Origin: Mytilus trossulus
Lineage: Eukaryota
Direction of reading: 5' to 3'
NCBI RefSeq assembly: GCF_036588685.1
Contig: NC_086380.1
Coordinates: 32,674,001 to 32,738,000, forward strand
Length of the DNA: 64,000 nt
Shown here: positions 332 to 55,551 of the stretch, piece after piece
Numbering within the stretch: the first letter of the stretch is position 1
How the letters are laid out: each line of letters opens with the position of its first letter
Translations under genes and position numbers: made by a program
The notes under the pieces: model-generated
Told to the model about the DNA's origin: nothing
What the model saw: the letters and a program-made list of their open reading frames with translations, nothing else
Databases searched by the model: none

Positions 332-3300
332 AACACAGAATGGAAAACTTTGAGTTTTGTTTATGATGGTAAATTCCTTACAGGAAGTATAAATGGTATG
401 ACATCAAGAGTCCCACTTAGAGGTATGTGCATTATATAATACTGTAAACCAACTAATGTTTGGAACTTTAGCGAGTAGAAAAATAAGGTGGATATAAATA
501 GTTGAAAATGTTTTCTCTTTTCGACTACATAAGGTGAATGTGAAAAAAACAAATTAAAAGCGTCTCGTAAATAAAAAGAAGCGTTTATTCTCAACAAAGT
601 TTTTTTTATTTAAACCATAGATTTTTAACATCTGTATACAAGAATGAAAAAAAAAAGTCATTTAAAATTTTTATAAAAACAAGTTCAGAGTAATAATATT
701 AAAAGAGCACACTATTGTCTCATATTTTCATGACTTTTAAACTGGATGCAATGCGACGTTTAGATGAATAATTCAAACAACCGACAGAACGTTATTTGAA
801 TATCTTTCAAAATATCAGAAACGAATGTACTCTAATATATAAGCTATATTATAATATATATTTTTATGCATGGTAACTAATTAGTATATTAGATTAATGA
901 AGATGTCAACATTGTCAGGAGACACCTACCGCACATTATGCAAAACGATGGTGACCTTATCGTTTGTTAAAAAAAAACAAGCAATAAACTAATAAAATAG
1001 CCTTTAAATTTCATTTTAAAAAAGAGTATTGAGTATTTTGCAAGGTCAATTTAAATTACCGGTCAGTGACTCCGTAAAAAAAGCTATTGGTGTCTTGTAA
1101 AATTCGAATACAATATAATATTCTATGGACCCGTTTAAAGACATATATTTATTACAGGTGTAATCGAAGAAAGACCAAGTGCGCTGATACTAGGAGCATG
1201 TGATTATTTTGGTGGATTTGATGGTTTAATGGATGATGTAAGTTGAAAAAAACCAGTAGTAAACGAAGAAAACGTTTTTCAGGGAATGACGTAATAAATA
1301 TTCCCTAAAAGATTCGAAATATACACATTTGCAAGCTGCGTTTTACACCGTTTTACAAGAAAATTATCTGTGCTGAAATGAAAATTTTGTAAAAATTGAA
1401 TGGCCTTAAAACTGTCTGTCAGGAAAAAAAACATTTCACAATCATCATTCTTAAAAAAACATTTAGGTTCAACAGGCGACAGTAGTAGACCGATGAGCAA
1501 ATCCCGTCAAGAGAGTAGTAAGAGATAATTCCAAGGTAACGAACAAAAACTGAAGGAATCGTTTGCCCTTGTAAAAAAGCAATACCAATCGTCAACAGGG
1601 CAAGTGCCTCCTGATATGCAAGCTGCATCAGCCATGCAAACTTATAAGTACAAAACACAGTGTTAGTTTTTATTGTAATCATTGGTAGATAAGCTCTTTC
1701 GTTCAGATGACATGTTTTCATAAAATGAGGCAGTTATTAATATGGAAATAAAATAATTGCTTGTTGATTTACGCAAAGCACCAGTTATCACATGAATAAT
1801 AAGGACAAAGAACAAGACGAAAAGAATGGTTTTAATGAAATGCAATTAAATACATTCGATCAATAGACATGTTCAATTTTGAACAAATGAATATAAACGT
1901 TTTGGTACTGTACCATAATTCCGTTGCATTAACCAAAATTCCCACCAACAGTTTTTGTTAATATCATAAGATGCATTTTTAGAAATCCACCAAAATATAA
2001 AAAAAAATTATTCAAAATGGTGCGTTCGACTCTTTTCTGGATTTACCTTCATCATAAACACTCAACTCCGTAAAAATGGAAAGCCAATGATCTATTTATA
2101 CTTTAATACTAGAGAAGCTTATTGTCGAAACAAGACCTTAAAGGAAAGCCAAATCCGAAATAGCATGAGGAACCTCGGGGCATCCTTACACTACAACATA
2201 TAATAAGGCATTATTATTCACTAACATAACTATGGTTCTTTGTGTGTCCTAAATGATAGCAAATATATTGTCTCTTTAATAAGAAAAAAAGTGTTTTCGA
2301 TAATATTTATTGAATTTACACTTTATGATACATAAAAATAACTCAAAGACTTAAATGTGTACGCCAAACGCGCTATGTGATTACAAAAACCTCCTCAATA
2401 TCGCTCGAATCACGCAAGTTGACATGCCAATAAATAGGCAGTACGAAATAAATGATTGACAATTAGGGCTTGCAAATAATTGGGTCAACTAAGAACACAT
2501 GATAATTTATGACGAATTTATATTCTTAGAATTCGATTATACACACATGATTAAAATATACACATTGAACAGGCTTGAGAATCAATAAAACAGTCTCATA
2601 TTGTCAAGCTGTAGATATCGGCAACACTTCTGTCACCTACATAACCTAATAAGATAGCAAATCAATAAAATTTACATAAATTATAAAGAAGAAGACAGGA
2701 TTGAATGCTGAAAAAAACACCAGGTGAATTCCCGTCACAGGTTCATGTACCTATTCAAATTCATATTTTTCTTTATTGTAAAAGCATGACACATGCACAA
2801 AATATATTTTTTTGGTAAGCATTATTTCATTTTTTCGCTGACATAAGGGCAAATTATTATCTCGGGCGGAGAGTTCATATTAATTTTTGTACATGCATCC
2901 TAAACACGTTTTGTAATCCTCGGTTTTTAATGCTCGTCAACTACTTTTATATTCGAGTGTCACTGTATATTTATATTTAGCCGTAACGTACCAAATAAGA
3001 AGCCTTGTATAAATTAAAGGCAAGAAATGGTATCAACATTTTTCTATTCAGCTTGTTTTCATTATCCATAACAACCATCGCTTCACATTTACGAAATGTC
3101 ATATTTATGAAAATTCAAAAACTTCTTACAAGATTTCTTAAACACCAAATCTACTATTTGTATCATTGCTTTGATTCTTTTTTCTTTTATCTCATCATCT
3201 ATACTGCAATTATTTATAGATAAATATTAATGTATGTGATCTGTATATCCATAGAACGAAACGGATTGAAACTCTAGGCACAAATACTATTGTTCTTGCA

Positions 3301-3512
3301 AAACATGTCGAGTTTTCCTATTGCACTTATTTCTGCGTACATTCTGATTTCTGTAGCGAAATGACGACACAAAATCTTGATGATTTATAAGACTGGCTAT
3401 TTTGTTAGTATTTTCAGATTGTGTATCGGTTCACTCATATATTTGATATTAATAAAATGCTTTATCTTTTCAGGTTAAGTTGTATCTGTGTGTACCGCAT
3501 GGAATAACGTAG
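332..3512 (+). CDS. 3' part (last three exons) of a Pif/LamG3-like laminin-G domain protein; join(332..422,1158..1237,3474..3512); gene starts upstream of the window
   Basis: AG|exon|GT sites in consistent phase give NTEWKTLSFVYDGKFLTGSINGMTSRVPLR-G-VIEERPSALILGACDYFGGFDGLMDD-VKLYLCVPHGIT*. This aligns exon-for-exon (same 91-nt exon, same phases) with the last three exons of the minus-strand gene at 12602-14059. Missed by the ORF track. Confidence 0.85.
2021..2063 (-). ncRNA. Degenerate hammerhead-like motif, third family (relatives at ~32320-32364 +, ~30726-30750 +, ~16727-16741 +)
   Basis: GTGTTT-ATGATGA-AGGtaaatCCA-GAAA-AGAG-TC-GAACGC; the other copies share tgatgaaggt and/or the upstream tatttggctttgagcgttc flank. 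Confidence 0.45.
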
Positions 3513-12601: not shown

Positions 12602-15600
12602 TCACCGTTGTTTACGAGGTTTGTAAATATGTCTTGGAATACAACCACTAAATACTTCAATCTGGAAAATAGAATTAATACAAATGTCATTCAATATGTT
12701 TATTGCAAACATATGTAAAATTGTGTGAAACAAGGTTATTAATTTACATAAAAACAAATGCATCTCATCAACATAGGTATAAAATCATTCTGTCACGCAA
12801 ATTGTACATGTATATCAGTACAAAAACATGCTTATGGAGATATGTCTCGTTGGCAATCATACCAAATTTTCTTTTTTATATTATTTAATATGACCGACAA
12901 GTCAATGTCTGTTTATAGCGTGCTAGTTCATACGACGATTTTATTCTGACTTCGAGCAGTCTAGTTTTTTTTCTCACTCCATATTGTCACGTGCTTAGTG
13001 GCCAATTGAGTAAGCTAGGAAAGCCTGATTCTTAACAGATGCTCACAAAATTTATAAGCACTTGTCCTCCCAAATGTCTCCCCTAAATAAAACCTTCATC
13101 ATGACGATCATTTAAATTGCTTGCGTTTAAAATAATCGCAGACATAATAAAGGTCTCAAATGAAAATATGTACTGGAATATGAATTTAATATCTATTCTT
13201 ATAACGCATTTAATTCAACTGGAACTTTACCAGGATTCTTCGAATCAAAGATATTTTATCGTGGAGAATAGATTAAGTACGTTTTAGAGAACTTGGCCTT
13301 AAACAATTCGTTCAAAACTTGTAAAATCAACAACACAATGTCTCTTTGATTGTGATTCTGTAAATTCAATCAACACACAGCTCCAGTCAAATCATATGTG
13401 TTTTCAAGTAAAGTAAGAACAGATTCTGCTGGTATAGAGATAAAATTGAAAATAACATTTAACTTACACTATCTATTAAACCTGTGTATCCTGAACCAGG
13501 TTTAGGACAACCACCTATTACAATAGCATTTGATCTTGTTTCTAGCATACCTGAAAATTAAGAATGATATCTAAAAACGTCTTGTTCCTTACACAAATAA
13601 ACAATTTCATAAGTCATGTTTATTAAATTAATTTGAAACTATTTATAAACCGAGGACACAACACCCAGTTAGTCATTAATAGAAACCATTTACAGTTCCA
13701 TCTGTGATATGATCAGGTGCATATTACATTCCGAAGTCGTCAATATATCAATGATTGATCCTGTAATGTTTTGTTACCCTTTCTCCAAGTTGCACATTTT
13801 CAAATGACTCTTTTCTATGTATATCACAAAAAGTTATGTCATTTTCATTTTGGCTTTCAGATATTCTTAGCTAAAATTTCATAACAATAAGAGTTATACC
13901 CATTCACAATTGGATTGTCATTTGAAGACATCTCAACACTCAGACGAATTAAAACTGAATCAACTTACCTCCCAACGGCTTTCTAGATCTATAACCATCT
14001 ATTGACGCAACGAAACTGTTACCATCATACACATATGTTAAGTCATTCCAAGAGTATGGCTATAAAAATAAATAATTATTGCATTACAACTGTTACCATC
14101 ATACACATAATTATGTTATGTCATTCAAAGAGTATGGCTTTAAAATAAATACATATAAGTGTTTTAGCTTTAAACTGAAGACAGAAGGACACAGTCCCAA
14201 AAAAAAGGGCATCAATATATAAAATGTGATAAAAAATTGATGTTAACAGATTTAAACGTTTATATTAAACAAATGTACAAATGTAATTGATTAAATGTGT
14301 TCAAGATATGACCGTTTATGCAATTGGAATAATAACATAAAAGTGATTAAACTAGAAACATATAAACAAAGCTATTGGCCTTTTCATCTAAGTACATAAT
14401 GTCCTAAATATTCGTCTAGCAAAGTATAGCAATGCTCTTTTCTAATATAAATTGCAAAAAATTCAACCGATTTCATGCACACAAAAAAGGAAAAAAAAAG
14501 GTAAAAAAAATATCCCCAAAAACCAGATATTGGTATGGTAACGATTAGTTGCACACAACACGGGTACGTCATTATACATTTAAGTGTTACTTACATCGAA
14601 ATGACTTGTGATAAATGTTCTTCTACTAAAACTGTTACTTTTGGCTACTAATTTCACTTTATGATTTTCTAATCCTATTGCAACTGTTGCAGTTCCCGTC
14701 ATGCCACAGTTCGAAATCAAATTTCCCTTTTCTGTTGCTTTTGGATCCGGTTTGAATCGTAATCGAATGGCCAATTTCGTTCCAAGTTCTTTATTCATAA
14801 ATCCCCACAGAGTTATGCGCCCATTTCCATTGAATTGTGCAGCTCCATCATTGATAACAACATTGTGTACATCGAACGCCATATTGGAACCTGACAACTC
14901 CTTGAATCCGTAGTTGAAATTCATATAGAAATCTGGCTGACATTCTGAATAAGAAACTAAAGTTTGAAAATCACTGACGTTTTTTGTTACCAATATTTTC
15001 CGGTTTGAAACGAAAACATCGAGCATAGAAATCGTGCACAACTGATTACGTCACAATATATTGATAAATAATTTCTAAAATCAAGGTCAACAGGAATTGA
15101 GGTATTATAAATGAATCCAATATTTCCCCGTTTTCAATTGCATAAATTGATACATGCTTCCCAACATCGAGTTAAGTCGAGCATTACATTGTCATGAATA
15201 CCACGTGCAGTCATAGTTTTTGTATTCTAAACGGAAATAAAATATTGAATAGTAGTGCCAAACTTTGATATCAGCCAATCAAAACTAAGGTTTACAATGA
15301 AATATATATCTAATATAATTATACACGTATGGAAGAGGGACGAAAGATACCGAAAGAGACAGTCAAACTCATAGATTTTTTCCTCCATAATAAAAATTCT
15401 CAAAAATACAATGTTACTGATAGATTAGTCTTATTACTTTGCACGCATATTTTACTCCATACTGACTCTACACTTGAAATTAGCATTCCCTATGTTGATT
15501 CAATTTTTGTATTTAGAAAGCAGAACAACCATTTTTAAATTATCATCAAATTGTAGATGGGAAACGATGTGCTCCAATTCTGTATTTCTTCATTTTAAGG

Positions 15601-18600
15601 ACATGCCCTTTATTTCTTATATTTATATTTAGCACCTCATTATTCCGTATTATTTCTTTTTTTATTACTTTCCTTAATTGTTATTTTGTTTTTTTGCCTT
15701 TTTATTTTGATTATTACTCTCTATTCTGCGAACCCCCTTTAAACCCTCCAAAATTTAACAGTTATTTTAATGATGCTCACCTCTCATTCTACGTCTACCA
15801 CTACGCATCGGTCCTGATCCTCTTCTACATCCACACTGTCTTGCACTGAATACAGTTCCTTCTGGACAAGCTCGAATTCTTAATCCATTATATTCCAAAG
15901 TTAGATAACCGTGTGGATTGTATTCATCAGGTAAGAATTTACATGCTATAAGAAGAAAATGCCTTATTTCAGTCACAAAAACATAGCAATTTAATAAATA
16001 TGTCAAACCATTTATTGTATGCTACAGTTTTCCCAAATATTGACCCATGTTCTCAAACCTGATTGATAAAATAGGCATAGACACTTCATCAAAAACACTT
16101 GGAAGTTATTTCGAAAACATATATAGAGATTGTAATAATACTAAGATGGACGTCATCCTTGAAATAGTAGTACCAGTTTTATGCACATTTCGACAATTAG
16201 TGTCTCTTCGGTTATGCTTGAGTACAAAAATGCATAGCACATTATTTTTTTGAGAAAAGGGTGAGATAACTGAATTGAATGGAACAGCTTCATTTTGTTC
16301 TATTGAAAATTAATAAAATCTTACCTTGAAATCGCATTCTATTTTCAATATCATAAGGGGTCAAACAGTTGTCCCGGCATGTTGGGTCCGGTACACACCC
16401 ATAGTTGTTATAACGGTAGCCTTTCTCGCAACACATAGGAACAGATATTCCGTAGTCACAACGATAGTAAGAACGACATCCACCTGTTCTGTTGTATTGT
16501 ACCATATCTATATCCAAACATGGATCTGAAAGTCAAACAAAAAATATTACATTCTAAGACATAACAAATTTTAAATCAACTTATACAGAAAATAAAATCT
16601 ACCGGGGTATACACTGTATGCACTGTTATGTTACATTATATTATATTTAACCCCTCCATAGCATTTTTATAGCTCAATAAGTGTTTCGGTACTTATACAT
16701 CCTCAGCTTTCAAATATGTGGCTCTAATCGTTCTTGATGAATGCATATATATTTTTGTATTTGTAATTGTAATCATAGCAACAAGTTACTTGTAAAATAA
16801 TATTTACCATCATAACAAGGAACCTCTGCAGGTGGTCGACAAAGTACTTGGTCCTGATGCCAGAAATATCCGTAGGGACATTCTCTTTGCACCGCAACAA
16901 CTTTTCCATCGGAATGGAAACATTGAACTAATTTATCGCAATACCCAGGATACTCAGCATAACCAATTCCGTCAATAAACATACTATTGCCACACAATGC
17001 TACAAGAAAATATTGTTGTGAAGATAACTTTTTTAAGATGTTTATGTTGACCTCAAATACAGCTCATTTTTAAATCATTTATGGTCTCACTGAAATCTTT
17101 TGAAATAATGAAAAGTGTTTTGAGATGATCAACTTTTGTGATAAAATCTTATTTTGTTTATAGCAGTATTTTTATATCTGTGATTTTTCGATATTTCTTA
17201 TTTTTCATATGTTAAATGTTGTAGCATATACATTGAATGTGTTATAATATCGTTTTTAAAATGGTCATGCGTTTATGACGGGTAGATTTCTTATTTTGAC
17301 ATTAGTTACGAATTGATTTTGTTTTGATATTTGGTGTTCAAGCTATTTACCGTCCAAACTTATTTGAATTCGAATGGTTTTTTTTGGTTAAAAGAGAAGC
17401 TTGTTTGTTGTCTCATTGATTTGTACTCCAAATATACGTGTATATGACCTTTGATAAGGATGGTTCGATTGTTGTTGTATTATATCGTCCGAGATTGTAT
17501 ACATTCAAAATACTGACACATGATAAAACTACTTACTTTCTAAAGCTGGAGAACTGAATTCTGGTTCATATTCTCCCACTAGATTATGTTTTCTGTCTTG
17601 TTGTGTATTTTCAGCCCCTCTGGACATGTCAAATTTATTGCTCATCTGCTGTTGTCTTTGATGAATCTGCATACTTCTGTCATATAAATCCCTTGAGAGT
17701 TCGTTCGTTGTTTCCATTGTCCTCGTTGCTACTCTTGATGTTTTTTCAGGTTTTAACCCGGTCACTCTGACGTCGGTTGTTTCAAGTCTTCGCTTCAGTT
17801 GAGGTTTTTCGGGTCCTGTATCAGTGACGTATGTTTCTGGTAATGCAGTTTTTTGTGTTTCTTCAATTGTTGGTTTGTCACGTGGTTCAAGTGTTTGTTT
17901 TTCGGTCTGTTTTATTTCTGTAACAACTACTTCCGGATCTTTAATTGTCATTTGTTGTTCGGTTGCTTTACCTTGCATATTGTTTTTTACAAGTAAATCG
18001 GGGTTTTCGATTGTTGTATAGACAGGTTCAATACTTGCTTTCTCAGTTCCTTCAGTTTGTAGTACTGTGTTGATTTGTATTGGTTCAGTAGCCGTTGAAT
18101 CAACAACTTCCTGTTTCTGCTCAACTAATCTACTTGCTGGTGCTATTTTAGCTGATTCGGTGTTAATATTTTGTTCATCAATTACTGGTACAGATTGTGA
18201 TTCACTACCAATGAATGGTGATACTGTAGTGTTTATATCAGGTACAGTAGTGTCTGCTATTTTAGCCGATTCAGTATTTGTATTTTGTTCATCAATTATT
18301 GGTACTGATGGTGATTCACTACCAATGAATGGTGATACGGTAGTTTTTATATCAGATACAGTAGTGTCTGCTATTTTAGCTGATTCGGTGTTTATATTTT
18401 GTTCATCAATTATTGGTACAGATGGTGATTCACTACCAATGAATGGTGATACGGTAGTGTTTATATCAGGTACAGTAGTGTCTACTATTTTAGCTGATTC
18501 GGTGTTTATATTTTGTTCATCAATTACTGGTACAGATGGTGATTCACTACCAATTAATGGTGATACGGTAGTTTTTATATCAGGTACAGTAGTGTCTGCT

Positions 18601-21600
18601 ATTTTTTCTGATTCAGTATTTATATTTTGTTCATCAATTACTGGTACTGATGGTGATTCACTACCAATGAATGGTGATACGGTAATTTTAATAACAGGTA
18701 CAGTCGTGTCTGCTATTTTAGTTGATTCAGTATTTATATTTTGTTCATCAATTATTGGTACTGATGGTGATTCACTACCAATGAATGGTGATACGGTAGT
18801 TTTTATTTCAGGTAAGATAGTGTCTGTTATATTAGTTGATTCAGTTTTTATATTTTGTTCATCCAAAGTTAACGATTCACTAGCAATAGATGGTGATAAG
18901 GTAGTCGTTATCATAGGTTTAGTAGCGTCTGTATGTTTTGATGTTTCGAGTGGCAGGTCATACTTTTCTGTATTTGTAATACCTTTTATCTCATACTGTG
19001 GAGTTTCATCAATCTTCTTAACTGTTGTTGTCTCATCAGCTGCTGGTATGATATCTACTTTATCTGGTGTGGCGGAAAACACTAAATCGACATTAACTGT
19101 TTCTGGAGACAACTCTTTAATAACGACCCCATCGACATCTTTAGATATCACGGTATGATCAATTGATGGAGATCCTTCCACTAGAGGTTTGTTGTTAGAT
19201 AGTAACTGTTCGTCGCCTATTTTAAAGCTGGTTGACTGCTCAGACATTGTCTGTTGACCTTCAGTTTCCATTGGGATTGTCGATTCAAGATTTGTAGTTT
19301 GGGTGAAGGATTTTTCCGAAATGTCCTTTTCCGCTGTGACCGGTATAATGCCGTCAGTTAATGTAGAAGTTTCTGACACCGTATCAGTTGCTTTATATTG
19401 TACCACAGGTACCTCTTTGATTAATACAGATGTGTCTGGCTGATCCAAACCTGTTTCAGTAGCAGTTTCGGATTGACTGGGCATATATACAACCACTCCC
19501 TCTTTACCTACGAGTTGATCTGAAGTCTGAACAGATTTTGTTTGATGACTTTTAGGTTGGCTTGACTTGTCTGTGAATGCCTCCTCAGTAACTTGCGAGA
19601 CAGCAAGGGTATTTTGTAGATTTTCTTTAGTACCTCCAAGCAGATCAGATTGTTGTGAATCTACAGTTTTAGATTCAAGAGATTGACCCAAATTACTTAC
19701 AGATGAAGTATCCGATTTATCCAAGGAATTTGTATGTATAACGCCAGAAGCTGCTACCTGTTCGCTTTTGAGTAAGTTGTCTTCATATAAGGTCGCTGGA
19801 ATAACAATAGCCTCAACATTTTGAGACTTTGTAATTGTACCTTCAGGTACTGTTGCATCCAATGTTTGTGCCTGATCGATTGAAATAGACTTGCTATCCA
19901 CAACTGCTTCAGGTTTTGTTGCCACAATGCTATCCAAAACTGTTTCGGTGTTTGTTGCTGCATTGCTATCAAAAACTGCATCAGCGTTTGTTGCAGCTTT
20001 GCTATCCACAACTGCTTCAGGTTTTGTTGCCACAATGCTATCCAAAACTGTTTCGGTGTTTGTTGCTGCATTGCTATCAAAAACTGCATCAGCGTTTGTT
20101 GCAGCTTTGCTATCCACAACTGCTTCAGGTTTTGTTGCCACAATGCTATCCAAAACTGTTTCGTTGTTTGTTGCTGCATTGCTATCAAAAACTGCATCAG
20201 CGTTTGTTGCAGTTTTGCTATCTACAACTGCTTCAGTCTTTTCTGCAACATTGCTATCCAAAATTGTTTCGGTGTTTGTTACTGGATTGATAACCAAAAC
20301 TGCTTCAGTCTTTGTTGCTGTATTGCCATCCACAACTGATTCAGTGTTTGTTGTTGCCTTGCTATCTAAACCTGCATCAGTAGTTGCTGTCTTGCCCACT
20401 AAAACTTCTCCAGTGTGTGTTAGTGCCATGCTATCAAAAACTGCTTCAGCGTTTGTGGCTGCATTGCTATCCAAAAGTGCTTCAGTGTTTGTGACTGCTG
20501 TGTTATCGACAACTGCTTCAGTATTTGGTATCGTCTTGCTTTCCAAACCTAATTCAGTTTTTGGTGCTGTCATGCTATCTAAAACTGCGCCGGTATTTGC
20601 TGTTGACATGCTATCTAATACTGCTCCAGTGTCTGTTGCTGTATAACTATCCAAAACTGCTTCATTGTTAACTGCTGTCTTGCCATCTAACACTGCTTTG
20701 TTATTTTCTGCTGCCGTGTTATTCAAAACTGCTTCGTTGTTTGCTGCTGCTGTATTATCCAGAATTGTTTCAGTGTTTACTGCTGTCTTACGATCTAAAA
20801 CTGCTTCATTGTTTACTGCTGTCTTACTATCTAAAACCGCTTCGTTATTTACTGCTGCCGTACTATCTAAAATTGATCCAGTGTTTGATGCTGTATTGCT
20901 ATCCAAAACAGTTTCAGTGTTTGGTGATGTCTTGCTATCTAAAACTTCAATGTTTGTTGCTGCATTGTTATTTAAAACTACTTCAGTGTTTGGTGATGTC
21001 TTGCTATCTAAAACTGTTTCCGTGTTTGTTCCTGCGTTTTTATCCAAAACTACTTCAGTGTTTGGTGATGTCTTGCTATCTAAAACTGTTTCCGTGTTTG
21101 TTCCTGCGTTTTTATCCAAAACTACTTCAGTGTTTGGTGATGTCTTGCTATCTAAAACTGTTTCCGTGTTTGTTGCTGCTTTTTTGTCCAAAACTACTTC
21201 AGTGTTTGGTGATGTCTTGCTATCTAAAACTGTTTCCGTGTTTGATCCTGCGTTTTTATCCAAAACTACTTCAGTGTTTGGTGATGTCTTGCTATCCAAA
21301 TCTTCTTCAGTGTTTGTTGCTGCTTTGTTATCTAATACTGCTTCTGTGTTTGTTGCTGCATTGGTATCAAATACTGCTTCAGTGTTTGTTACTACATTAC
21401 TATGAGGAATAGCTGTAGGTACATTCTCATTCAAACTGGCCCCTTCATTCACTGGTATGTGATCATTTAAAGAAGGGTTTTCCTCTATTGCTCCTTCTCT
21501 GGTAATACTTTGTACAGCATTTGCTGGCAAGTCTTCAAGTGGCATTGGAATAGATAATCCACCAGGCGCGATCGGAGCTCCTCCAACCGCCTTATCAGTT

Positions 21601-23345
21601 AACTGTTGTTCACTGATTGTTTGTTCTATCACGTCACTTACTATTGTCGTATCTTTATTCGGTTCTTGTACAACAGGTCCGCTTATTTCAGGTACACTGA
21701 TTTTTTCAGAGGTTATAGATTGATCAATCACGCCTTTGTCCAATGTTGTATCTTTATTTGATTCTTCTAAAACAGTTCCACTTGATCGAGGTGCACTGAT
21801 TGTTTCGAAGGTTTTAGATTGATCTATCAAGTCTTTGACCACTGGCTCTTTGTTAGTTCCAAATGGAGCGGCAATGTAGGTTTCAGGGGTTTTAGATGAT
21901 TCATTAACGTCATTTGCTAATTGTGTATCCTTGATAGGTCCCTCAATAGGGAAATCAATGTATGTTTGGTTGTTCATTTCAGAGGTTCCCGAATTTACAC
22001 TGCCCGTTGCCTTTGTGATTTCATTATTTTTCGAAACGGTTCCGGTAGTTGTTCTTTCTGTTTCACTACCAGTGGCTATTAATTCTGTCAAAACCTTATT
22101 TTCAACATTATTTCCTTCGATCGGATTTGTTTGCATTTCAGTCGTAGCTAATTCATTAGTGAATGCAGGTACATCTTTGGGTATATTCTGTTCATTATCT
22201 GACCTCGAAGGCTTGTTAGAATCGACAATGGATGAATCTGTTAAAGTCCCCGAATGTTTTGCAATGTTTGTCGCAAATAACATTTCTGTTACGGGTTCCT
22301 CAAGTGCTGTTCCTTTTAATGGTTCAAATGCTTTTGAGTCTACAGCTTGACTGATAAAAGACTTATCTGATTGTTCTGTATTTGATGTTGCTGGAATGCC
22401 TACCTCTGTTTTAATTGTACCATCTATAGGAATACCAACCACTTGAGGGTTGGTTTGAATTGTTGGTGTCTGTACAGATTCTGTGGTCGTCAAAGGAATT
22501 GGTGGAACTTCATTGTTAATTCTTTTGACATCAACGAGATATTCTGGACGTACATCAACCAGTTCGGATTTGCTGGTGACCTTTTCGTCTGTTGTCTTTT
22601 GTTCCTTATCACCCAAAAATTTCAAAGAATAAGTGTTATCCTGAGCAGCTACAATATTTTCTCTTGGAACAGGTTCCATAATAATATAATTATTATCAGT
22701 ATTTATATTGGAATCAACCCTTGACCCTGAACTTGCTCTACGGAAGTGTGACATCGGTATTTTGATACCAGTAGATAAACCAGTTTGTTTTGATAACCGA
22801 GACTGGTTGTCTTTTATAGCATGGGGTGAGTTATGATTCAGTTCAATTATTTGAGTTTCAGGTATAACTACTGGAGCATTAAGAACTTTTGGATTACTAT
22901 CTAGTACATCCATATTTACGGGTGTATACGGCACAGGAACAGCTGGTATTTCGTTGGCAGACTGTTCTATCTTTGAATTTGTCGCTTTGTCCGTATTGGT
23001 TTCAGTTTCTTTATAATGGAATGTTCCAGTGTCCATCTTGCCTAAAGAAAGAGATGGTTGCTTCTCACTGGCGCTAAACCCTGATTCTCTCATATTGTGT
23101 TGTTTCCGTCTTTGTGTAGGTTCTGTCTGTGATTGAGAGCTAACAGTACTTCCTGGGGTCGACGTGTTAGGGTCGGCAGTAGGTGTAGGCTGTGGCTCTG
23201 CCCATCCAGTTACCGGGTTAATGTCATTTGTAAGAGTGTCCCATGATTTTCCTTGAACTTGACCTTCACCTTGAACTAGACCTTCACCTTGACCAGATGT
23301 TTTGGTACTGAACGACACCAGCAGAAGAACAGGAATCACAATCAT
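12602..23345 (-). CDS. Secreted Pif/BMSP/LamG3-family shell-matrix-like protein, ~2316 aa; complement(join(12602..12661,13468..13550,13969..14059,14595..14944,15781..15945,16325..16525,16808..16999,17537..23345))
   Basis: Hydrophobic N-terminus MIVIPVLLLVSFS; 5.8-kb exon of T/E/D/S/V-rich repeats; three Cys-patterned exons (CDKLVQC..CPYGYFW..C; C..CRSYYRC..MCC..C..C; C..ACPEGTVFS..C) resembling ChtBD2/peritrophin-A; then LamG/ConA-like exons (AQFNGNG, LISNC, WNDLTYVYDG, IVIGGC..GYTGLIDS-IEVFSGCIP). All junctions are GT/AG and total 6951 nt in frame. Confidence 0.88.
16181..16222 (-). ncRNA. Degenerate hammerhead copy (45445 family), intronic
   Basis: GCATAA-CCGAAGA-GACActaatTGTC-GAAA-TGTGCAT; core U4 changed and 3' arm of stem I lost. 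Confidence 0.55.
18140..18910 (-). repeat. Coding tandem repeat, 114-nt/38-aa unit (DEQNINTESAKIADTTVPDINTTVSPFIGSESPSVPII), ~6.5 copies
   Basis: Seven DEQN starts; ttgttcatca recurs at 18171 and 18285. Confidence 0.95.
19890..21400 (-). repeat. Coding tandem repeat, 36-nt/12-aa unit (e.g. DSKTSPNTEVVL, DSNAATNTETVL), about 42 units, with 72-nt and 108-nt higher-order blocks
   Basis: Visible periodicity; gctatccaca recurs at 19893 and 20001 (108 nt); alternating DSKTSPNTEVVL/DKNAGTNTETVL dimers at ~20970-21310. Confidence 0.95.
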
Positions 23346-23720
23346 AGTGATGTCTACAACATAAAAAGAAATTTCATATAGTTACGACAAAATAACATGT
23401 TAAGAGAAAAAAAATGAAACTCTGCAATATTGACTTAGTTTTTTACCCTGAACATTGAGTGAATGAATGTCTGTTTTCTAAACATATTGATCATCCCCTA
23501 TCATCTTCATTTTCATTTTAAATAGCAATGCGAAATGACAAGAGGATTTATCAAGGCGGAAGTAGTTTTCGATGGTTAAATCTCGAAAATCTATTAGGAA
23601 GAAACAAATCAAGGTAACATTTACAGACTTATGAGTTGCGTGCACTTTAAGGTAGTTAAAAAGGATTGTTTAGTACCATGATGACTCGTTCGAGTATGCC
23701 ATACTTAAAAAGTGGATGGT

Positions 23721-23867
23721 ATTTTAGCTACGAAAGGGATATATTCTGGTCAAGAAAGTAACATATTTTAGCTACGAAAGGGATATATTCTGGTCAAGAA
23801 AGTAACATATTTTAGCTACGAAAGGGATATATTCTGGTCAAAAAAGTAACATATTTTAGCTACGAAA
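23721..23867. repeat. 44-bp minisatellite, ~3.3 near-identical copies
   Basis: attttagctacgaaagggatatattctggtcaagaaagtaacat starts at 23721, 23765, 23809, 23853. Confidence 0.95.
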
Positions 23868-25479
23868 TGGAACTTTTTCTGTAAATATTTTATTAGTATT
23901 GAGATAAACATACTTGAAATGGATGTACACCTTGAATATTGCTTACATATTATGAAAATCTAAGAAAGAAAATTCGAAGTAACCGACAATCACAATCAAT
24001 TTGTGTTAGTCAAGATGATACACTGACTTTATTGTACACATTGTTCCTATTAAGTATTAAGTGTTTTTTTTCTTCTGATAAACACCGCGTATATCAAGCA
24101 AAACAACTACTTTGTCAATTCCATAATTAAATTCACGAAGACCTCATGTGTATGCTTAACATAGATTGGTTCTTTCGTAAACTATTATTTGTTCCTTTCT
24201 AGAAAGAAACATTTGTATGAACATTGGCCTTTTTCATGAAATAAAGTTGTATAAAGTTTAGAATAAGGAAAACTTGAGTTATAACGTTTGGTATACCATT
24301 TTCTACATTTGAAAATGCCTCTACCAAGTAAGGAATATGACAGTTTTCCATTCGTTTGATGTGTTTTATCCTTTGATTTTGCCATTTCATTAGGGACTTT
24401 CCGTTTTGATTTTTCCTAGGAATTCAGTATTTTTGTGATTTTTACTTTTTTTGTATTGTACCAAATACAGATGAGATGTAACTGCATGTACTTTTAAAGC
24501 TTTTTGAGGATTTAGTTGTTTGAAAAATAACACAAATGATGAACACGGGCACGAAGAATAACACGTAATGTAATGTAAAAAGTATACCTTAATTGTCAGA
24601 TTATTTAACAGTATCCTAACTGTTTTTACTTATGTACAAATTTAACAATTTTTTTCAACATTGATCTGTGTCCACACTTGTTAGTAGAACTAATAAAACA
24701 ACAGGTAAGATCAAAACAAATGTCGTCAGGTCAATTTTTTAAATCATCGACGCTAAAAAAAAAAAGCCTAAATAGTGTACTTTTGTCAGCTTGAAAGAGT
24801 TAGTTGAAATCGACACAATTGATAAATACAACATAAGATGTCAAAGTGTAATCTACAACAGACGTGTATGCAATATATTTTTCTCTAAATCCCATTGAAA
24901 CTATAAAAGTAGTTCCGGTCCCTCTGCCTTTTGATCCCGATCATTGTAAAAAGAGAAATTAGAACAATAGAAAAACTGACCTTTTTAATCACATCTTTAT
25001 GGATAACAATTACAAAAGTAGAATTAAAACGATTATAAACATACCCGTCTCATTTTATTTTTTTGCATTTACAAAACCCAAACTATATGAATTGATAAAC
25101 CCCGGGCCCGTATTTAAGGGGTTTTGGTGATTTATAACGGCCTTATTATTTTTCGTTTAATATATTGTCAGGGATCAGGCCATATTTTTTTTTTATTTTG
25201 TCACATATTTTGCAATGTCTTGCCGTTGATAAATAATTACACAAAAAACGTCCATATGTTTGTGATATTATGCCGTTATAAGTATGACCAGTTTATGATA
25301 TTTAATTGATAGCCATGCTGTAGAAGTATTTTAGTAATGAAAGTACTAAGCTCTTATAAATATGTGATTGATATCAGAATTGACCTCTGTTGGAATAACA
25401 TGACTGACTTTTACATTGTTTTATAACATTTTGGCTACTCTCAATTTAGAGAAATCTTTTATTAATAGTGCTGTATTTT

Positions 25480-26331: not shown

Positions 26332-26400
26332 CCAGTTTGATTTGCTTTACATCCACGAATGTGACCTGCTATCTGTATTGAGCCGTTGGAAAAGAAGACT
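26332..26400 (-). other. Candidate non-coding first exon of the Pif/LamG3-like gene
   Basis: Strong donor TGG|GTGAGT at 26331. The coding exon has an acceptor (TTGTAG at 23354-23359) 8 nt before the ATG, so an upstream exon is needed. The 5' boundary is a guess. Confidence 0.4.
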
Positions 26401-29400
26401 ATGTCACTAAGTAATTGACAAATCGTACCCTGGAATGATGACCTTATGTAAACAGACAAACACAAAACTTGTGTCAATTAATGCATTAGCGTGCGCTAGT
26501 TGACATAAATTTGACGGCTTCATGATGACATTTTAATTATATTAAAAAAAAATAATTAAAACACGACATCGCTTCAAATTAATTCTCATTTAAAAATATG
26601 ATTACGAGGTTAGCATGCATATAATTATAGAATTATTTGTGGTTTATATTTACCATACTTTGTCACTGCCAGTTTAAGAGCAAATTAACAACTCTTTATT
26701 GTCTCTGAACTAAACATTAACAATTGCACATTTCCTTAAGAGGAAATAATGGAGACTTTACTCAATGAAAACATATATTTCTTTGATAAATGTTGCATCA
26801 TGCATGATTTAGTTGCTACGTTGCAGACCATTGCTGGTTTCGTCTGTTTTCTGCCCTTTGGTCTGACTGTTGGTTCTTTGACATACTCCCCATTTCCATT
26901 CTCAATTTAATGTTTAGAGTATACATAAGAAAATATATATTCATATATAACGATAGGATCATTTAAGAACAAAATATGATGGAGATGAAGTTGCAAATAA
27001 AATCTTTTCAAGCTTTGACAATTGATAGATAAATATAACAAATAATATAACAAAAAAATATAATACTATTAAATGAGTGCAAAAAGTGTTTAATCTGGGG
27101 GAAACAACCTCTAGAAAAAAATTATAAAATATTTTAATATAAACCATGCAAACTACTGTGCATTGTAAACAACTCATATGATTCATTTGAAAACACATGC
27201 ATAATTAATTAGTGGTAATTAGGTTGATTATTACTAACCGTGCAGACAATTTAATTGTCATATTTCATTCAAGATATGTATATGCTTCTAAAAATATCAA
27301 AATTTAAATGAGAATTAATTCATTTAATTTTAATCAGGTCAAATGCCTCTGTCAATATGTCCTAATTTTGGTGAGCACGAACGTATCTGACTAGAAACAG
27401 CTCATCGTTTTGAATGGGCTTATTATTCAAAATACCTCAACTTCATTTCCGTTCAACGCATACAATGTTTTAGTGATGACGGTTACGGCTGTGACGTGAC
27501 TATAGTCACACTGTAACAAGCTCCTCCATTGGTGCGCTCTACAAGCAATATTCATGAGCATATTTGATTTACGAAGAGGTTTACAATACATATAGGATAG
27601 AACAAAGACACGAGGAATACCAAGTCCTTAAAACGCTGTCTTTTTACTACTTCATGTTTTTTGAAGATTTCAATGAAACGTAGGTATAGTTGCAGAGCAT
27701 TGCATTTAGAAATTCTGACCTTTAGAAATAAAAATTAATAGCAAATTTTGTGATTTCTTGTATAAAATTATCTTTATAAAAATATTTTATCACCAAAACA
27801 AAATATAAATTATTGGAACGGCAGTATAAATTGAAAAAAGGACGATATTAGTGTGAAAAATTAAGTATGCTTGAAAAAATGGAACGGCACAATATTACCG
27901 CAACGTTTTGCTGGACAGGTACACTTTCCTTTTTGGGAAACTTCTGAATTTTTCCCAATCCTGTGTTTAGAAATCTATTCTGCAAGACGGAATGATTTTT
28001 TTTACACAGTCCCATTTTGTTCCTCATGCCTTCTGCACGTTTTCATATTTGTTCTTCCCCAATTTTCCCCAATCTTGTTTTTTTCCCCAAATTTGTTCTT
28101 TAAGACAGAATGACTTCCATTTTTTTACACACCCGAACTTTGCTCTTCGTACATTTCTGCACGTTTTGCGAAGTATATAAGTATTGTTATTTAAATGATA
28201 AATAAGTTTTTAATTGTTTGCCTTATTACAAAAGCAAGGGTCAATCAGGAACTATAAAACATGCCACTTGCAGTAAGTGGTTATCCTCCCGAACCACACA
28301 AGTTCATCCCAGTGTATGTGTATTTCTTCATTTTTCTCAAACCTTTTTGTTTCTTCGTCTTTGTTTCTTCCCTTTTTCCCACTCATTTGTGAATTAATGT
28401 GCAAGTGTTCTGTCACTTGTGGACTTTTTTCTCTATTTAAATTTTTCGAAATTGTTTTGATGAGTTATTCTACAATTTTTAAAATCGCAACATACATTGT
28501 TTTCGCAACATACATTGATTTCACACCGATCATTCATTTTTTGTTAAGATTTTGTTAAGGCAAAGCTTCTTTTCTTGGGATAAAATATTGCAAAAAAATG
28601 AAACACAATATTCAACTATTTATTACTTTGGAAACTACAGACTAACTGTAACATATTTGATTGATTCTTTGCTACGATAAAAATTCGAACTAACGACTTT
28701 TTACTTTCCTTTTCAACATTTAGAATCTAATAAAACATTTAAAAAGCATTGCCCCTCCACCACAAAGATGCACGGTTCTTTTCCATTCAGAATAATATGA
28801 TATATGACTAGGAACAAATGAAAAATCATGAGAGAATTCGAAAACAATTTTTCATTCAACTGTTTTCAAATTATCATACATTTTCATTTGTACCTGGCCA
28901 TACATCATATTCTGAATGGATAAGTCATATTGAAGGATTTTTTATTCATTGCATAAATATGTCAATATTGACAATTTATACTTTTATGAGCGGTTTCAAT
29001 GATTACAAATCTGAATGAAATCTTCGAAAACGTACATATGAGAATAAATAGCTTTGACTTTTATTTGGAAACTCAATATAGTGATAAGAGGGGTTCTAAT
29101 CAAGAATTCATGAGAAAAAAAACGCAAATTGCTTGTCTGTAAATAAAGTGTTTAATCCCGCATGCAAATTGCAGAAAAATGTCTTGGGACCTCTCTCAAT
29201 ACTTATATTCTTGTGTAATTCCGGCGTCCCGCCTCGCGTATAGTACCGACGTACGCCGGACGTTGTCAACAACCATGTACACTGCCAATACGATAGTAAT
29301 TTTGGACGCATTCAACTTGTCAATCATATCTGCACAACGCGTGTTCAGGGCATATATAAAGAGCATACATAAGTGTGTTTCAGGCGTTCAAGTAACGTAT

Positions 29401-37188: not shown

Positions 37189-38160
37189 CTACTGTAATTT
37201 TACAAATTTAGATAATGTACTTATAAGCTTTCCTAAGCTGGCACGAATGGAATTGAAAGTTGACATCATTTGATTCATAGAGTTACTAAATCTTGCCATA
37301 ATTCCTATTTTTTGTTGTTGTGTATAACTTGCTTGTTGTTCTTGGTTCTGCGGTTGTTGTGATTGTGGCTGTTGTTTAGATTGTGGTTGTCTTTGATTTG
37401 GTTGCTGATTACCATTCTGCATCTGCATTTGATATTGTCTATGCATTTGTTGTTGCATTTGTTGGTGACGCATTGCATTTTGTTGAAATTGTTGATCATG
37501 TGGTCCATTTCCATGGCCGCCATTTGGTACTTGACCTGGTGCTGATATGGCTGCTCCACTTCCGTGTCCCTGTTTCATTTTCTGCCAAGCAGCATTCATT
37601 TTTGTAGGAGCTTTCGTAGTGATAGGATGTTCTGGTGCTTCATATTCCACAGCAGGTGCTTTCGTTGTCGGTTGCTGTCCTGGCTGTTGGCCACCTGGAG
37701 CTCCAGGTTGTGGTGCTCCCATACCTCCCATCATTCCGTTACCCATCATACCCGGATACATTGGGTAATTACCTGCCATCATACCCTGTCCTCCCATCAT
37801 CCCTCCACCACCGCCCATCATTCCAGTACCGTGACCCATCATACCTTGACCTCCCATTCCGTGTCCTCCCATCATTGCGCCACCTCCCCCCATCATACTT
37901 TGCGGTATCGGTGGTGGTTGTGTATTGAATCCACCTCCCATAGCAGCGGCGAATTCTGGGGGAACTGGACCGAAACCTTGTCCTCCGAAACCCATCCCGC
38001 CTCCTCCTCCCATTCCACCCGCTTGTGGATTCCAGGTGCCTCCTGCTCCACCTTCAGCTGCACCAGCACCTCCTGCTCCACCTCCACCATTCCACATTCC
38101 TCCCATCTGCTGACATAAACATGTCGGTAACAACAAACTTGCTAATGTAAGCGCTAACAT
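37189..38160 (-). CDS. Secreted Gly/Met-rich, Gln-rich low-complexity protein, 323 aa (candidate shell/extracellular matrix protein)
   Basis: GC-rich ORF in AT-rich DNA; signal peptide MLALTLASLLLPTCLC; GGG/MMGG repeats, then P/T linker, Q-rich block and a possibly amphipathic C-terminus. Acceptor TAG at 38168-38170 just before the ATG; AATAAA at 37123-37128 after the stop. Confidence 0.85.
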   Translation of the reverse strand: MLALTLASLLLPTCLCQQMGGMWNGGGGAGGAGAAEGGAGGTWNPQAGGMGGGGGMGFGGQGFGPVPPEFAAAMGGGFNTQPPPIPQSMMGGGGAMMGGHGMGGQGMMGHGTGMMGGGGGMMGGQGMMAGNYPMYPGMMGNGMMGGMGAPQPGAPGGQQPGQQPTTKAPAVEYEAPEHPITTKAPTKMNAAWQKMKQGHGSGAAISAPGQVPNGGHGNGPHDQQFQQNAMRHQQMQQQMHRQYQMQMQNGNQQPNQRQPQSKQQPQSQQPQNQEQQASYTQQQKIGIMARFSNSMNQMMSTFNSIRASLGKLISTLSKFVKLQ

Positions 38161-38921
38161 TCTGTTCCTAGTTGGTGAAAATGAAATGTATATTTAATTA
38201 GATTAAAACTCTGTCACTACATGAAAAGATACAGTAAAATTCATAACCCATCAAATAAAAATATAAAATAGTTTAAAAACGTTTAGGGATTTCAACAAAA
38301 TATGTGTACATGTATATGTGGTCAATTTGATTAAAAATTATAAAAAATGAAGCATCGGTGGTCTAAGTATTTTATTTACAGTGACCACAAAGGTTGTGAG
38401 TTAGATTAAATGTCGGTGGTCCTCTCCGAGTAATATGGCTTCCCCCATAAATAAAAACATGGCCGCCATGGTATGAACAAGTCTTTTTTAGAGGACTGAA
38501 ACTTGCGTTAAGTAGGCTCGCGATACGATTATAATATGTTTGAAAAACAACTGACATCTGTAAGGCTACCCATCTGGATTCACCAAACCTCGATAGTATG
38601 TTTTTAAATGAATAATTATTTACTATATTAAGAGGTAAATGTGGAATATACTGAAATAAGACAGCAATCCAACAGAAATAATTAACAGACATTCAAACTT
38701 GTAATATTCTATAAAGATTATCATATTTTAACATAATCCAAAGGTATTACTATTTGTCAATTTTTATCCATAATCCATGTTGGGCCATAACCAACATATA
38801 AGGACATAAAACGCCTTTCAAATCACCATGATTTTGTAACGTCTATATACATGTATGCTGATATCTTATACAATGTTGAAAATTTGTATAATTTGTTAAA
38901 TTGGATTCAAGTTTTACCTAC

Positions 38922-39644: not shown

Positions 39645-41182
39645 GATTCTAATAGGACAAATAAGTTCATTCAAATACTGAAGCGAGGTGGGTATGCCGT
39701 GTGTGTAGCTGTTCTTTTTTACTCCTTGTTAGATATAGCTCAAATATTCTCATAAATCTTTAGCTTGCATTGATTATTTCGTAGATAACCGCTAGAAAAT
39801 ATATGTTTAATTCTCAAACCCAATATTTCCTATTTTTAATTTACATGTTTTCTCGTAAACTACCGTCAAATCCAAAATTGACATTTCGTAACGAAGGAGC
39901 TGTCATGTTGACCCGCTGAAATCAAATGGGAAAACAAAACAAAACCTACCTCATAATTACATTTTAATACAATATTATACGAACTTCGATGGGTACAAAA
40001 AAGTTTATATTTTTGTGACATTGACTAAATATTGTTTTTATACTGCAACTTAAATTAGTAATTGATAGCTTTTAAATCGTAACATAAATATCAAGCTTAT
40101 TTTCATCCCTTGATGAACCCCTGATTGTAGAGAAAGTGTTCCATGATGAAATTGACATTGCAAAAAATATAGCTGTGTTACTATATTTAGGAAATAAACA
40201 AAACTAGTGGCAATATATTAATTCTTTTTTATTATGCATCCGAATAAGAATAAAAGTTCTTTTGTCTTTTGTTTTATTACAATTTCTAATACAATAAAAT
40301 TGGCAAAGCGTTTGCAAAGTAGGTTCAAATACATGTGGATTTACGTGGGAGGTATATTGTAACATCCATTATAATGTATATCTCTGAGTCTGCGCTAAGT
40401 ATAGATATATCGAGATTTTTCACACAGTGAAAGAAGCACGTCATATTAGAATTGCCATTTCTTTTTCTCATCTTACTGAAAAATATTCATAATAAATGTA
40501 TAAATGAAGGTTAAATATAATTTTAATATCTCGTGTAGCTAACAATTAATCATGTTTTAATTAAAACATGTGTTTGTTTATGAAAATTTCCTGAATTACA
40601 ACAATGAACAATGACCACACATTCAACCTTCATGATTATTGTTAAATAAGTGTTTTTAAACATAAATACATTTAAAAGTATATTTCAAAATTAAAAAAAT
40701 AATTTGAGCCTTTAATTGACATTTCAATAGTTGCATGTTCAACCTTTGTTAAAGTTGTTATTTCGTTGTTTCAATACAACACCTTTTAAACTAAATGTGC
40801 CATTAAATACTGGTGCTTCATCTACATGTATCATCAAATAGCTAAAATATGGTAACTAATGTCTTATCTCCCATGACAAATACATGAATGGTTTTGACTC
40901 TACAAACAAAGCCCCCAAAATATTTTTTTTGGTTTAAATGAATAACATTGTGTGAGGTGTTTGATAAGGGAAATAAACAATCTAATGATATAACTTTCAA
41001 CAGGAAAAAAAGGTGTCTTCTGAATGATTTTTCATCAGGTATATCTATCTGTATGTTTTTCTGTATGTATTCTTCACCTCCAATATAGGGGATCAAGAGT
41101 ACCCTCATTAAACCCATAATCCACACATAACGATTCATACTGATTTTTGATTCTTGATTTTTATTCCCAGAGGTGAAGTTAT

Positions 41183-42148
41183 ATGCACAGTATGTCTGCA
41201 TGGCAAACAGTAGCTGGTTATAAATCTGCAAACAAAAAATCTACATCTAAACCTGGGAATTCATTGCTTACAGCAAAAGTGGATAAGGATAAACCACCTA
41301 AAAAACGCACCCATTCAGACGTATCTAGTGACTCCAATAATAGTGCAGACTTATCTAGTATAAAGAACTTTCAAAAAGATATCGATGACATTAAATCAAA
41401 ACTTGAAGGTGTGCCTAGGAGGGAGGAACTTGACAGAGTAACAAAGGATCTGGTAAAAGCTAGTGATCTTGAGCAAGTAGTTACTGTAATTGTTAAAAAT
41501 CTGATGAACGAATTTGAAATAACATTGCAACACAAGATTGATGAAAAAGCTGAAGAAATTAAACATGAAATGCAAAAGCAATTGGAAGTTTTAGTTCTAG
41601 AAAACGAAGATTTAAAGAAACAGATGTCAGCTTTACAGTATCCAAATTCAACAATTAGAAGAGACCTTAATAGAACAAGTCGACTTTCAAAACAAGCTGA
41701 TATAAGCAGCAATTATAACGAGCAGTATTCAAGAAAAAATAACATTAAAATACTTAATTTTCCAAGAAAGGAACAACAAGATTTAAGAAAGGACTTCATG
41801 GAATTTGTCAAAAATGAACTAAATGTTCAATTAGAAGAAAGAGACGTGGTTGCAATCCACCGAATACCGTCTCAAAAGGCTGGGCCCTATCCAGTTATTG
41901 TTAAACTATTCAACAGTGATGTTAAACGTAAGATTATGAGATGTAGAAAAGAATTGACTAGTAAGATTAAGTTTGTGGATAACGTTACTCAAAGAAATAT
42001 GGGCCTAATTAAGAGACTAAGAGAAACGGAAGAATTTGAATCTGTCTGGTATTATAATTGTGGAATTTATGGTAGAACGTTTTCAGGACTTCAACTTAAA
42101 TTTGGACTATATGACGACATTCACTACAGGCTACAACAAGGAAAATAG
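41183..42148 (+). CDS. L1/Tx1-type non-LTR retrotransposon ORF1-like protein (coiled coil plus RRM-like region)
   Basis: Uninterrupted 321 aa; basic N-terminus, heptad-rich middle, motifs NEQYSRKNNIKILN, AIHRIP, PVIVKL typical of LINE ORF1p. Confidence 0.8.
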   Translation: MHSMSAWQTVAGYKSANKKSTSKPGNSLLTAKVDKDKPPKKRTHSDVSSDSNNSADLSSIKNFQKDIDDIKSKLEGVPRREELDRVTKDLVKASDLEQVVTVIVKNLMNEFEITLQHKIDEKAEEIKHEMQKQLEVLVLENEDLKKQMSALQYPNSTIRRDLNRTSRLSKQADISSNYNEQYSRKNNIKILNFPRKEQQDLRKDFMEFVKNELNVQLEERDVVAIHRIPSQKAGPYPVIVKLFNSDVKRKIMRCRKELTSKIKFVDNVTQRNMGLIKRLRETEEFESVWYYNCGIYGRTFSGLQLKFGLYDDIHYRLQQGK

Positions 42149-55347: not shown

Positions 55348-55551
55348 ATGCACACAGAAGATGGATAATCGATCTCACTTTTATTTATATTCATAATGTC
55401 TTACGATTGTGAAACATGCCGTACATAGTTTAAAATATGCTGTGATAAGAAACACATCAGGCACATGTGTATACATCGACCTATACATTGACTAACTGTA
55501 CTTTAAAAGTGGACTACGGCCGAACCGGACCATTGATTGTAAGTAGAGAAA

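Follow-up and report, generated by a model that had tools for sequence, protein, structure and literature searches.

What might be the role of a Pif/BMSP relative that has no VWA domain and in which about 1,900 residues of low-complexity sequence precede the chitin-binding (CB) domains? The question is raised by a gene of Mytilus trossulus, hereafter the giant gene, which occupies 23345-12602 on the minus strand of the 64-kb window analyzed (contig NC_086380.1, positions 32,674,001 to 32,738,000; all coordinates below are those of the window). Our analyses show its product, the giant protein, to be a VWA-less relative of Pif and BMSP, and suggest that it is probably a secreted, chitin-anchored, mucin-like spacer in the organic matrix of the shell.

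The giant gene has eight coding exons, which give 2,316 aa in an uninterrupted frame with a single terminal stop; the product equals RefSeq XP_063396159.1 ("mucin-2-like isoform X2", Mytilus trossulus) in length and sequence, and full-length counterparts are present in M. galloprovincialis, M. edulis, and M. californianus. The largest open reading frame (ORF) of the window (17529-23381, minus strand, 1,950 codons) holds the coding part of a giant exon running from the ATG at 23345 to the donor at 17537 (5,809 nt, 1,936 aa), lacking Cys and containing two Trp, as the first-pass annotation had described for a single exon of about 1,900 residues. Splicing was read from assembled contigs of 4 of 22 runs, one from each of four studies, with the spliced joints and not the run labels taken as evidence; the counts refer to the joints listed, and the giant exon is never covered end to end by one contig. 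In every one of the four runs, contigs bridge each of the seven coding introns, 17537/16999 among them, with CT..AC ends, and the seven exons after the giant exon have canonical AG/GT ends. Transcripts leaving the giant exon unjoined to the exon at 16999 had been named in advance as what would overturn the model; because all seven coding introns are bridged, this joint in every run, that objection falls away. The intron of the 5' untranslated region (UTR), 23353/26332, is bridged exactly in three of the four runs and by a shifted joint in the fourth. The 5' UTR exon carries an in-frame stop upstream of the ATG at 23345, and there is therefore no room for an upstream VWA in this transcript. In order of transcription, the features of the gene are as follows.

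26332..26447, minus strand: non-coding 5' exon, spliced to 23353 (5' end approximate; joint in three of four runs, 116-nt side in run X2)
17537..23353, minus strand: giant exon with 8 nt of UTR, the ATG at 23345, and 1,936 Cys-free codons (ends bridged in contigs)
23292..23345, minus strand: predicted signal peptide, about aa 1-18 (by hydropathy only, the most hydrophobic window of the protein)
21645..21841, minus strand: two copies of a 33-aa (99-nt) repeat (Tandem Repeats Finder)
19884..21389, minus strand: 42 copies of a 12-aa repeat, consensus TNTEAVLDSKAA, aa 653-1154 (Tandem Repeats Finder)
18141..18863, minus strand: about six copies of a Pro/Thr/Ser-rich mucin-like 38-aa repeat (Tandem Repeats Finder)
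16808..16999, minus strand: chitin-binding domain 1 (CBM14), aa 1937-2000 (Pfam E 8.4e-6 and splice joints)
16325..16525, minus strand: chitin-binding-like domain 2, aa 2001-2067 (Pfam CBM_14 E 0.0028, below cut-off; splice joints)
15781..15945, minus strand: chitin-binding-like domain 3 and a basic Arg-rich linker, aa 2068-2122 (CBM_14 E 0.022, below cut-off; splice joints)
14595..14944, minus strand: first exon of the LamG/ConA-like domain (splice joints and fold model)
13969..14059, minus strand: LamG exon of 91 nt (splice joints)
13468..13550, minus strand: LamG exon of 83 nt (splice joints)
12602..12661, minus strand: last coding exon, with the stop (3' UTR reaching at least 12262)

An alternative acceptor at 14945-14956 (minus strand) adds four residues (VSYS) ahead of LamG in RefSeq isoform X1 and in one M. 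galloprovincialis model. Immediately upstream of the real 91-nt LamG exon, at about 14060-14140 (minus strand), lies a degenerate and incomplete tandem duplicate of its acceptor and first part, the contigs using the real acceptor, and the first intron contains 3.5 copies of a 44-nt tandem repeat with 98% identity (23720-23871).

The C-terminal 380 aa form a module (pI, the isoelectric point, 8.7) of three CBM14-type domains and a complete LamG/ConA-like domain; it is contiguous, the LamG having no Asp/Lys/Arg-rich or Ser-rich insert to split it. The signal peptide (by hydropathy alone), the three chitin-binding-like exons, the LamG, and the lack of a VWA are thus all as first described, and the predicted signal peptide is nearly identical across four Mytilus species. 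A domain search had been expected to return CBM14 and LamG and no VWA; by Pfam, CBM14 is present and VWA absent, but LamG is not called in the giant protein (close paralogs match Laminin_G_3), although the fold model backs it. CBM_14 is above cut-off for domain 1 only and weak for domains 2 and 3; Pfam finds zero domains in the giant exon, and Rfam returned 0 matches. Built from a 77-row alignment, the model of the module reaches a predicted local distance difference test score (pLDDT) of 89.6, against only 31 from the single sequence, and its C-terminal half matches laminin-G/ConA-like sandwiches with E about 1e-8; it confidently predicts a complete LamG/ConA-like fold at the C terminus. Botulinum receptor-binding domains and laminin G modules are the best rows of this fold search; a relationship to the toxins is not implied, only the ConA-like sandwich being common to them, at 9-18% identity. 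As for the VWA, none was found by Pfam in the giant protein, and none in it or its orthologs by a profile of 12 relatives, which yet detects 37 of the 174 proteins stored for the comparisons below; six frames of the 64-kb window contain no VWA exon. A hidden upstream VWA exon was considered and rejected on this six-frame look and on the in-frame stop in the 5' exon.

The Pif/BMSP family has been delimited by a tree of VWA domains (PMC11291548), and LamG3 denotes CB plus LamG proteins without VWA, with repeated VWA loss described in molluscs (PMC10543319). The giant protein has the LamG3 layout (CB domain(s), a C-terminal LamG-like fold, no VWA), and the earlier statement that VWA-less LamG3 forms exist agrees with that source. 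Measured against Pif/BMSP, it lacks the VWA and has the homologous module; the split LamG of Pif (Pif97/Pif80) is missing, and PifN is set apart by its VWA and by a separate clade, the PifN ortholog being the adjoining gene. As an architecture, LamG3 has come about through several VWA losses and is not one clade, whereas the giant protein falls in one clade, and PMC9635652 applies the name to a tree clade with VWA-bearing members.

A phmmer search among 1.84 billion representatives gave 400 matches, the best 150 being considered. Of 174 proteins collected, the 113 that cover 240 or more module positions made up the tree set, from which fragments were dropped, as were 16 isoforms, duplicates, or rearranged models; a careful module tree was built from 47 of the 113, and 28 rows entered the approximately unbiased (AU) test. 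In the module trees the giant protein nests among VWA-bearing Pif/BMSP members. It forms an ortholog group (support 100/98) with Pinctada (partial) and Sinanodonta sequences, nested in a 13-row clade of VWA-less bivalve proteins with long Cys-poor N termini (100/99), which also contains a second M. trossulus gene, unionid Gly-rich forms, and scallop proteins; the sister of this clade is the PifN group, including AKS48157 (91/80). The relationship to Pif put forward by the first-pass annotation therefore holds for the module, a Pif-related CBM14 plus LamG unit, but not for a grouping with Pif proper, which the AU test rejects (p = 5e-6). Its claim that the arrangement is unusual for the family does not stand: taking gene models as annotated, 22 of the 113 tree-set proteins are VWA-less with a Cys-poor N terminus of at least 450 aa, and in 16 it measures at least 1,000 aa (12 when the four Mytilus orthologs are excluded). 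The arrangement is an ordinary one, since a published oyster shell proteome already lists a protein (2,453 aa, pI 4.08) with the same size and layout.

Within the 13-row clade, the sister subclade is that of PSM (P86860 of M. californianus; XP_063413153; scallop OWF39613), with 45% module identity. XP_063413153, the second M. trossulus gene, on a contig different from that of the giant gene, corresponds to PSM_MYTCA P86860 (compared by eye), which has been reported in each of the three shell layers of M. galloprovincialis (PMC4517812) and is only 294 aa long in Fig. S4 of PMC3896809. Like that of the giant protein, the PSM N terminus is long (1,200-2,000 aa) and Cys-poor; on the other hand, the region is basic in Mytilus and scallops (pI 9.7-10.4) and Gly-rich in unionids, whereas in the giant protein it is acidic. 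Pif (P. fucata C7G0B5) and BMSP share the homologous CB and LamG start (26% identity, E 2e-22), but Pif has a VWA, its LamG is split by an Asp/Lys/Arg-rich insert, and it is cleaved at RMKR. The 13-row clade as a unit, the PifN linkage, and the charge pattern were not found in the literature covered, with subscription papers and several supplements outside it, and five accessions and one motif had no match in its text; these genes are perhaps already grouped in the tree shown in PMC10543319. Hyriopsis hic124, described with CB and LamG, no VWA named, and as abundant in nacre (bioRxiv 10.1101/2022.09.07.507049), may be a member of the clade.

How such a protein could have arisen is suggested by its neighbor in the window:

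332..3512, plus strand: last three coding exons of PifN, 332-422, 1158-1237, and 3474-3512 (tblastn 91% and 79% identity to AKS48157)

AKS48157 (M. coruscus "sushi-like protein") corresponds to McoPifN_1582 in length, domain coordinates, and low-complexity sequence (PMC11291548). The 3' end of PifN lies tail-to-tail with the giant gene, about 9 kb from its stop, the rest of PifN being upstream of the window; the last three exons of the two genes have the same intron positions and phases, with exons of 91 and 80 nt in PifN versus 91 and 83 nt in the giant gene. The Sinanodonta counterparts carry locus tags ACJMK2_011229 and ACJMK2_011231 on a contig of the same size, and these neighboring tags suggest that the pair predates the mussel-unionid split; linkage outside the 64-kb window rests on locus tags and contig sizes. 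Two members of a second VWA-less clade with long N termini (P0044 and P0058) lie on contigs of the same sizes as the M. californianus and Sinanodonta orthologs, a hint of a larger linked family. Like the giant protein, PifN has three CB domains, a complete LamG (33% module identity), and a Thr-rich stretch before the CB domains; it differs in keeping one VWA and in a linker that is basic and of about 270 aa. The low-complexity region had been read as standing in place of the VWA, but PifN carries both. Because its Thr-rich insert lies between VWA and CB domains, loss of the VWA and expansion of the linker would be the simplest course, and the long region more probably represents a PifN-type linker that has expanded than a substitute for the VWA: a duplication in the PifN lineage before the mussel-unionid split would have been followed by VWA loss and by growth of the linker, within a single exon, through tandem repeats.

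The long region contains 13.7% Thr, 9.6% Ser, 8.7% Glu, about 6.7-6.8% Asp, and 6% Pro (Asp plus Glu 15.4%, Ser plus Thr 23.3%), with a pI of 4.3 and a net charge of -154. Of its earlier description as an acidic repeat region, the repeats stand, recognizable tandem repeat making up about 40% of the giant exon, but at these values the acidity is only moderate. The 12-mer array keeps its register, with 39 of 41 steps exactly 12 aa; the 38-mer array, in which 38 of 66 Ser/Thr are close to Pro and whose copy number varies among Mytilus models, appears by composition to be the most mucin-like stretch. The long region evolves faster than the module (62% versus 91% identity to M. californianus), and a tryptic digest of it would give 86 peptides of 7-30 aa. 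Its acids are spaced more evenly than by chance: there are 20 adjacent acid pairs versus 46 expected, with 0 of 1,000 shuffles as low (12 versus 27 outside repeats), a pattern present also in M. californianus and not in the unionid ortholog or the paralogs. The densest window holds at most 8 acids per 30 residues, compared with up to 19 in the Pif80 part of Pif, where Asp is 28%. S-x-E kinase sites are depleted (3 versus 16 expected), as are N-glycosylation sequons (9 versus 31); such single-motif deficits are only suggestive, because repeats make the sites non-independent and the 264 residue pairs scanned outside repeats show no deficit beyond z = -2.9. Four Mytilus species share the acidity (pI 4.3-4.7), the unionid ortholog comes close to neutral, and charge and composition vary across the 13-row clade. 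A possible N-terminal motif in common with the unionid ortholog is marginal: as high a score arises in 15 of 500 shuffles.

What links such proteins to shells comes from other bivalves. Unigene51584 of Perna viridis is a likely ortholog (four motifs match, with long identical runs in the module, the rest being compared by eye); one peptide is reported from soluble and two from insoluble nacre, and the authors class it as mucin-like, with a chitin-binding domain, and as a possible component of a gel-like matrix (PMC6641155). PifN is likewise found in Perna nacre, and Unigene51584 was not found in the Perna myostracum tables of that paper. In C. nippona, CNI_004555 (2,453 aa, 266 kDa, pI 4.08, with only CB and LamG, domains at 2077-2448; PMC10543319) is listed as "mucin-2-like" in the foliated and chalky shell layers (PMC10543319 supplement); it resembles the giant protein in having CB domains, a complete LamG, and no VWA, its orthology being presumed from the layout. 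Six peptides of the giant protein were not found in five supplements of the M. galloprovincialis shell proteome (PMC4517812), a blank that is not evidence of absence because an expressed sequence tag database was used.

Taken as a spacer, the giant protein would be secreted by the mantle, its CBM14 domains would dock on beta-chitin sheets, and its basic LamG end would bind acidic matrix proteins or glycans. The Ser/Thr-rich, evenly charged chain of about 1,900 aa, which from its composition may be largely disordered and O-glycosylated, would fill and hydrate the space of mineral growth, with diffuse calcium binding only; the secreted, chitin-tethered, O-glycosylated chain of the first-pass annotation is to this extent backed by what we infer from sequence. 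A number of points weigh against this picture. All the shell evidence comes from relatives of the giant protein. The Unigene51584 match is weak, with 1-2 peptides and a mantle level of 3.75 fragments per kilobase per million (FPKM) versus 1,383 for the top shell matrix transcript (PMC6641155); both peptides lie in the C-terminal module, and the transcript is incomplete. For many Pif/LamG3 genes, expression is not enriched in the mantle (PMC10543319). Domains 2 and 3, whose Pfam scores are sub-cut-off, can be assigned to the chitin-binding type only weakly, and basic sites at aa 79-82, 1855-1857, and 2115-2122 could separate the chain from its anchor. Within the chain, 145 of 451 Ser/Thr are close to Pro, and FoldIndex, positive in 11 of 19 windows and similar in the folded module, gives no clear disorder. 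Support for PifN as the sister is only moderate, and a grouping with the second VWA-less long clade passes the AU test (p = 0.13). Some VWA-less labels may moreover be annotation errors, because the Sinanodonta PifN ortholog model (P0035, ACJMK2_011229) is itself without VWA, by real recent loss or a missed exon; Villosa PifN is among the VWA proteins (PMC11291548).

Other explanations, which partly overlap with the spacer, have to be weighed against it. The long region could be a calcium-concentrating acidic domain doing Pif80's mineral-binding job from the N-terminal side, as its net charge and pI, the acidity kept in Mytilus, and the pI of the oyster counterpart would allow, with acidic glycans perhaps adding charge. 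We consider this unlikely: Asp, acid density, acid pairs, and S-x-E sites are all low, and the region is close to neutral in the unionid ortholog and basic (pI about 10) in the PSM paralogs of Mytilus and scallops. Sparse (15%) acids, more even than chance, argue against Pif80-like calcium binding; the region is no Pif80-like polyanion, and the label Ca-binding originally given to it is not upheld. The giant protein might instead be a proprotein cut at basic sites into a free mucin chain and separate CB and LamG pieces, with no tethered brush. Pif and BMSP are reported to be cleaved in two, the Arg-rich linker between domain 3 and LamG occurs in four Mytilus species, KRR stands at aa 1855-1857, and only C-terminal peptides are reported in Perna; this is nevertheless improbable, since KRR 1855 is absent in M. 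californianus, the linker offers only a minimal RxxR and is short in Pinctada, and the Perna transcript is without most of the long region, so that peptides from it could not be matched.

Invertebrate peritrophic mucins combine CBM14 domains with a mucin-like chain, a layout shared by the giant protein, which could then be a general chitin-associated mucin of gut, gill, periostracal groove, or foot mucus, minor or trapped in shell extracts. The low Perna mantle FPKM, the 1-2 peptides in a nacre list that also contains cytoskeletal proteins (PMC6641155), and the missing mantle enrichment of many family genes would fit; a non-shell role is still quite unlikely, as PSM and PifN, to which it is most closely related, are established as shell proteins, the gene is linked to PifN, and proteins of the same layout are reported in shells of two bivalve families. 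A long shot, and the least credible of these possibilities, is that the 42 12-mers with calcium would form a beta-solenoid, whose stacked Thr/Glu/Asp ladders would make a flat mineral-templating face on the chitin anchor. Each of N2, E4, V6, L7, and D8 is kept in 31-37 of the 42 units, the 12-mer contains little Pro (2.5%), the register is near exact, and the acids are unusually even; against this stand a ratio of nonsynonymous to synonymous change (dN/dS) between units of 0.82, a variable copy number, an array that is not apparent in the unionid ortholog, and an Atlas search with no match above 0.79. An Atlas search with the unionid ortholog gave generic LamG clusters only. Beta-solenoid folds are known from antifreeze proteins, and the array, if it folded so, would serve as a template for aragonite in the manner of an antifreeze protein. 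The idea of a molecular ruler that sets tablet thickness was also considered and dropped: oysters and scallops, which lack nacre, have equally long regions, and the ortholog of nacre-forming unionids is half as long.

Elsewhere in the window, a 334-codon ORF at 37189-38193 (minus strand), with a signal-peptide-like start, Gly/Met-rich and Gln/Pro-rich blocks, no significant Pfam match, and no identical entry for the sequence tried in the protein collection searched, is possibly another secreted matrix protein beside the cluster. Divergent UNC-93-like exons at 48556-49491 (minus strand) and 55543-56472 (plus strand; Pfam PF05978, E 5e-15 and 2e-12) are apparently a duplicated pair, and a 323-codon ORF at 41177-42148 (plus strand), with a coiled-coil look and a weak match to the L1 transposase RNA-binding domain (RBD-like, E 0.18), is probably a remnant resembling ORF1 of a long interspersed nuclear element (LINE).

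Together, these data leave the understanding of the family unchanged, VWA loss and giant low-complexity N termini being already published. They provide a full-length, splice-verified model for a "mucin-2-like" gene of which one shell proteome saw only a C-terminal fragment, and they assign the giant gene, together with PSM, to an old clade of bivalves next to PifN whose giant proteins lack the VWA; a tree based on the VWA cannot include this clade. From a biological point of view, the giant protein is a usable candidate for the gel-like matrix that has been proposed to surround nacre tablets as they grow.

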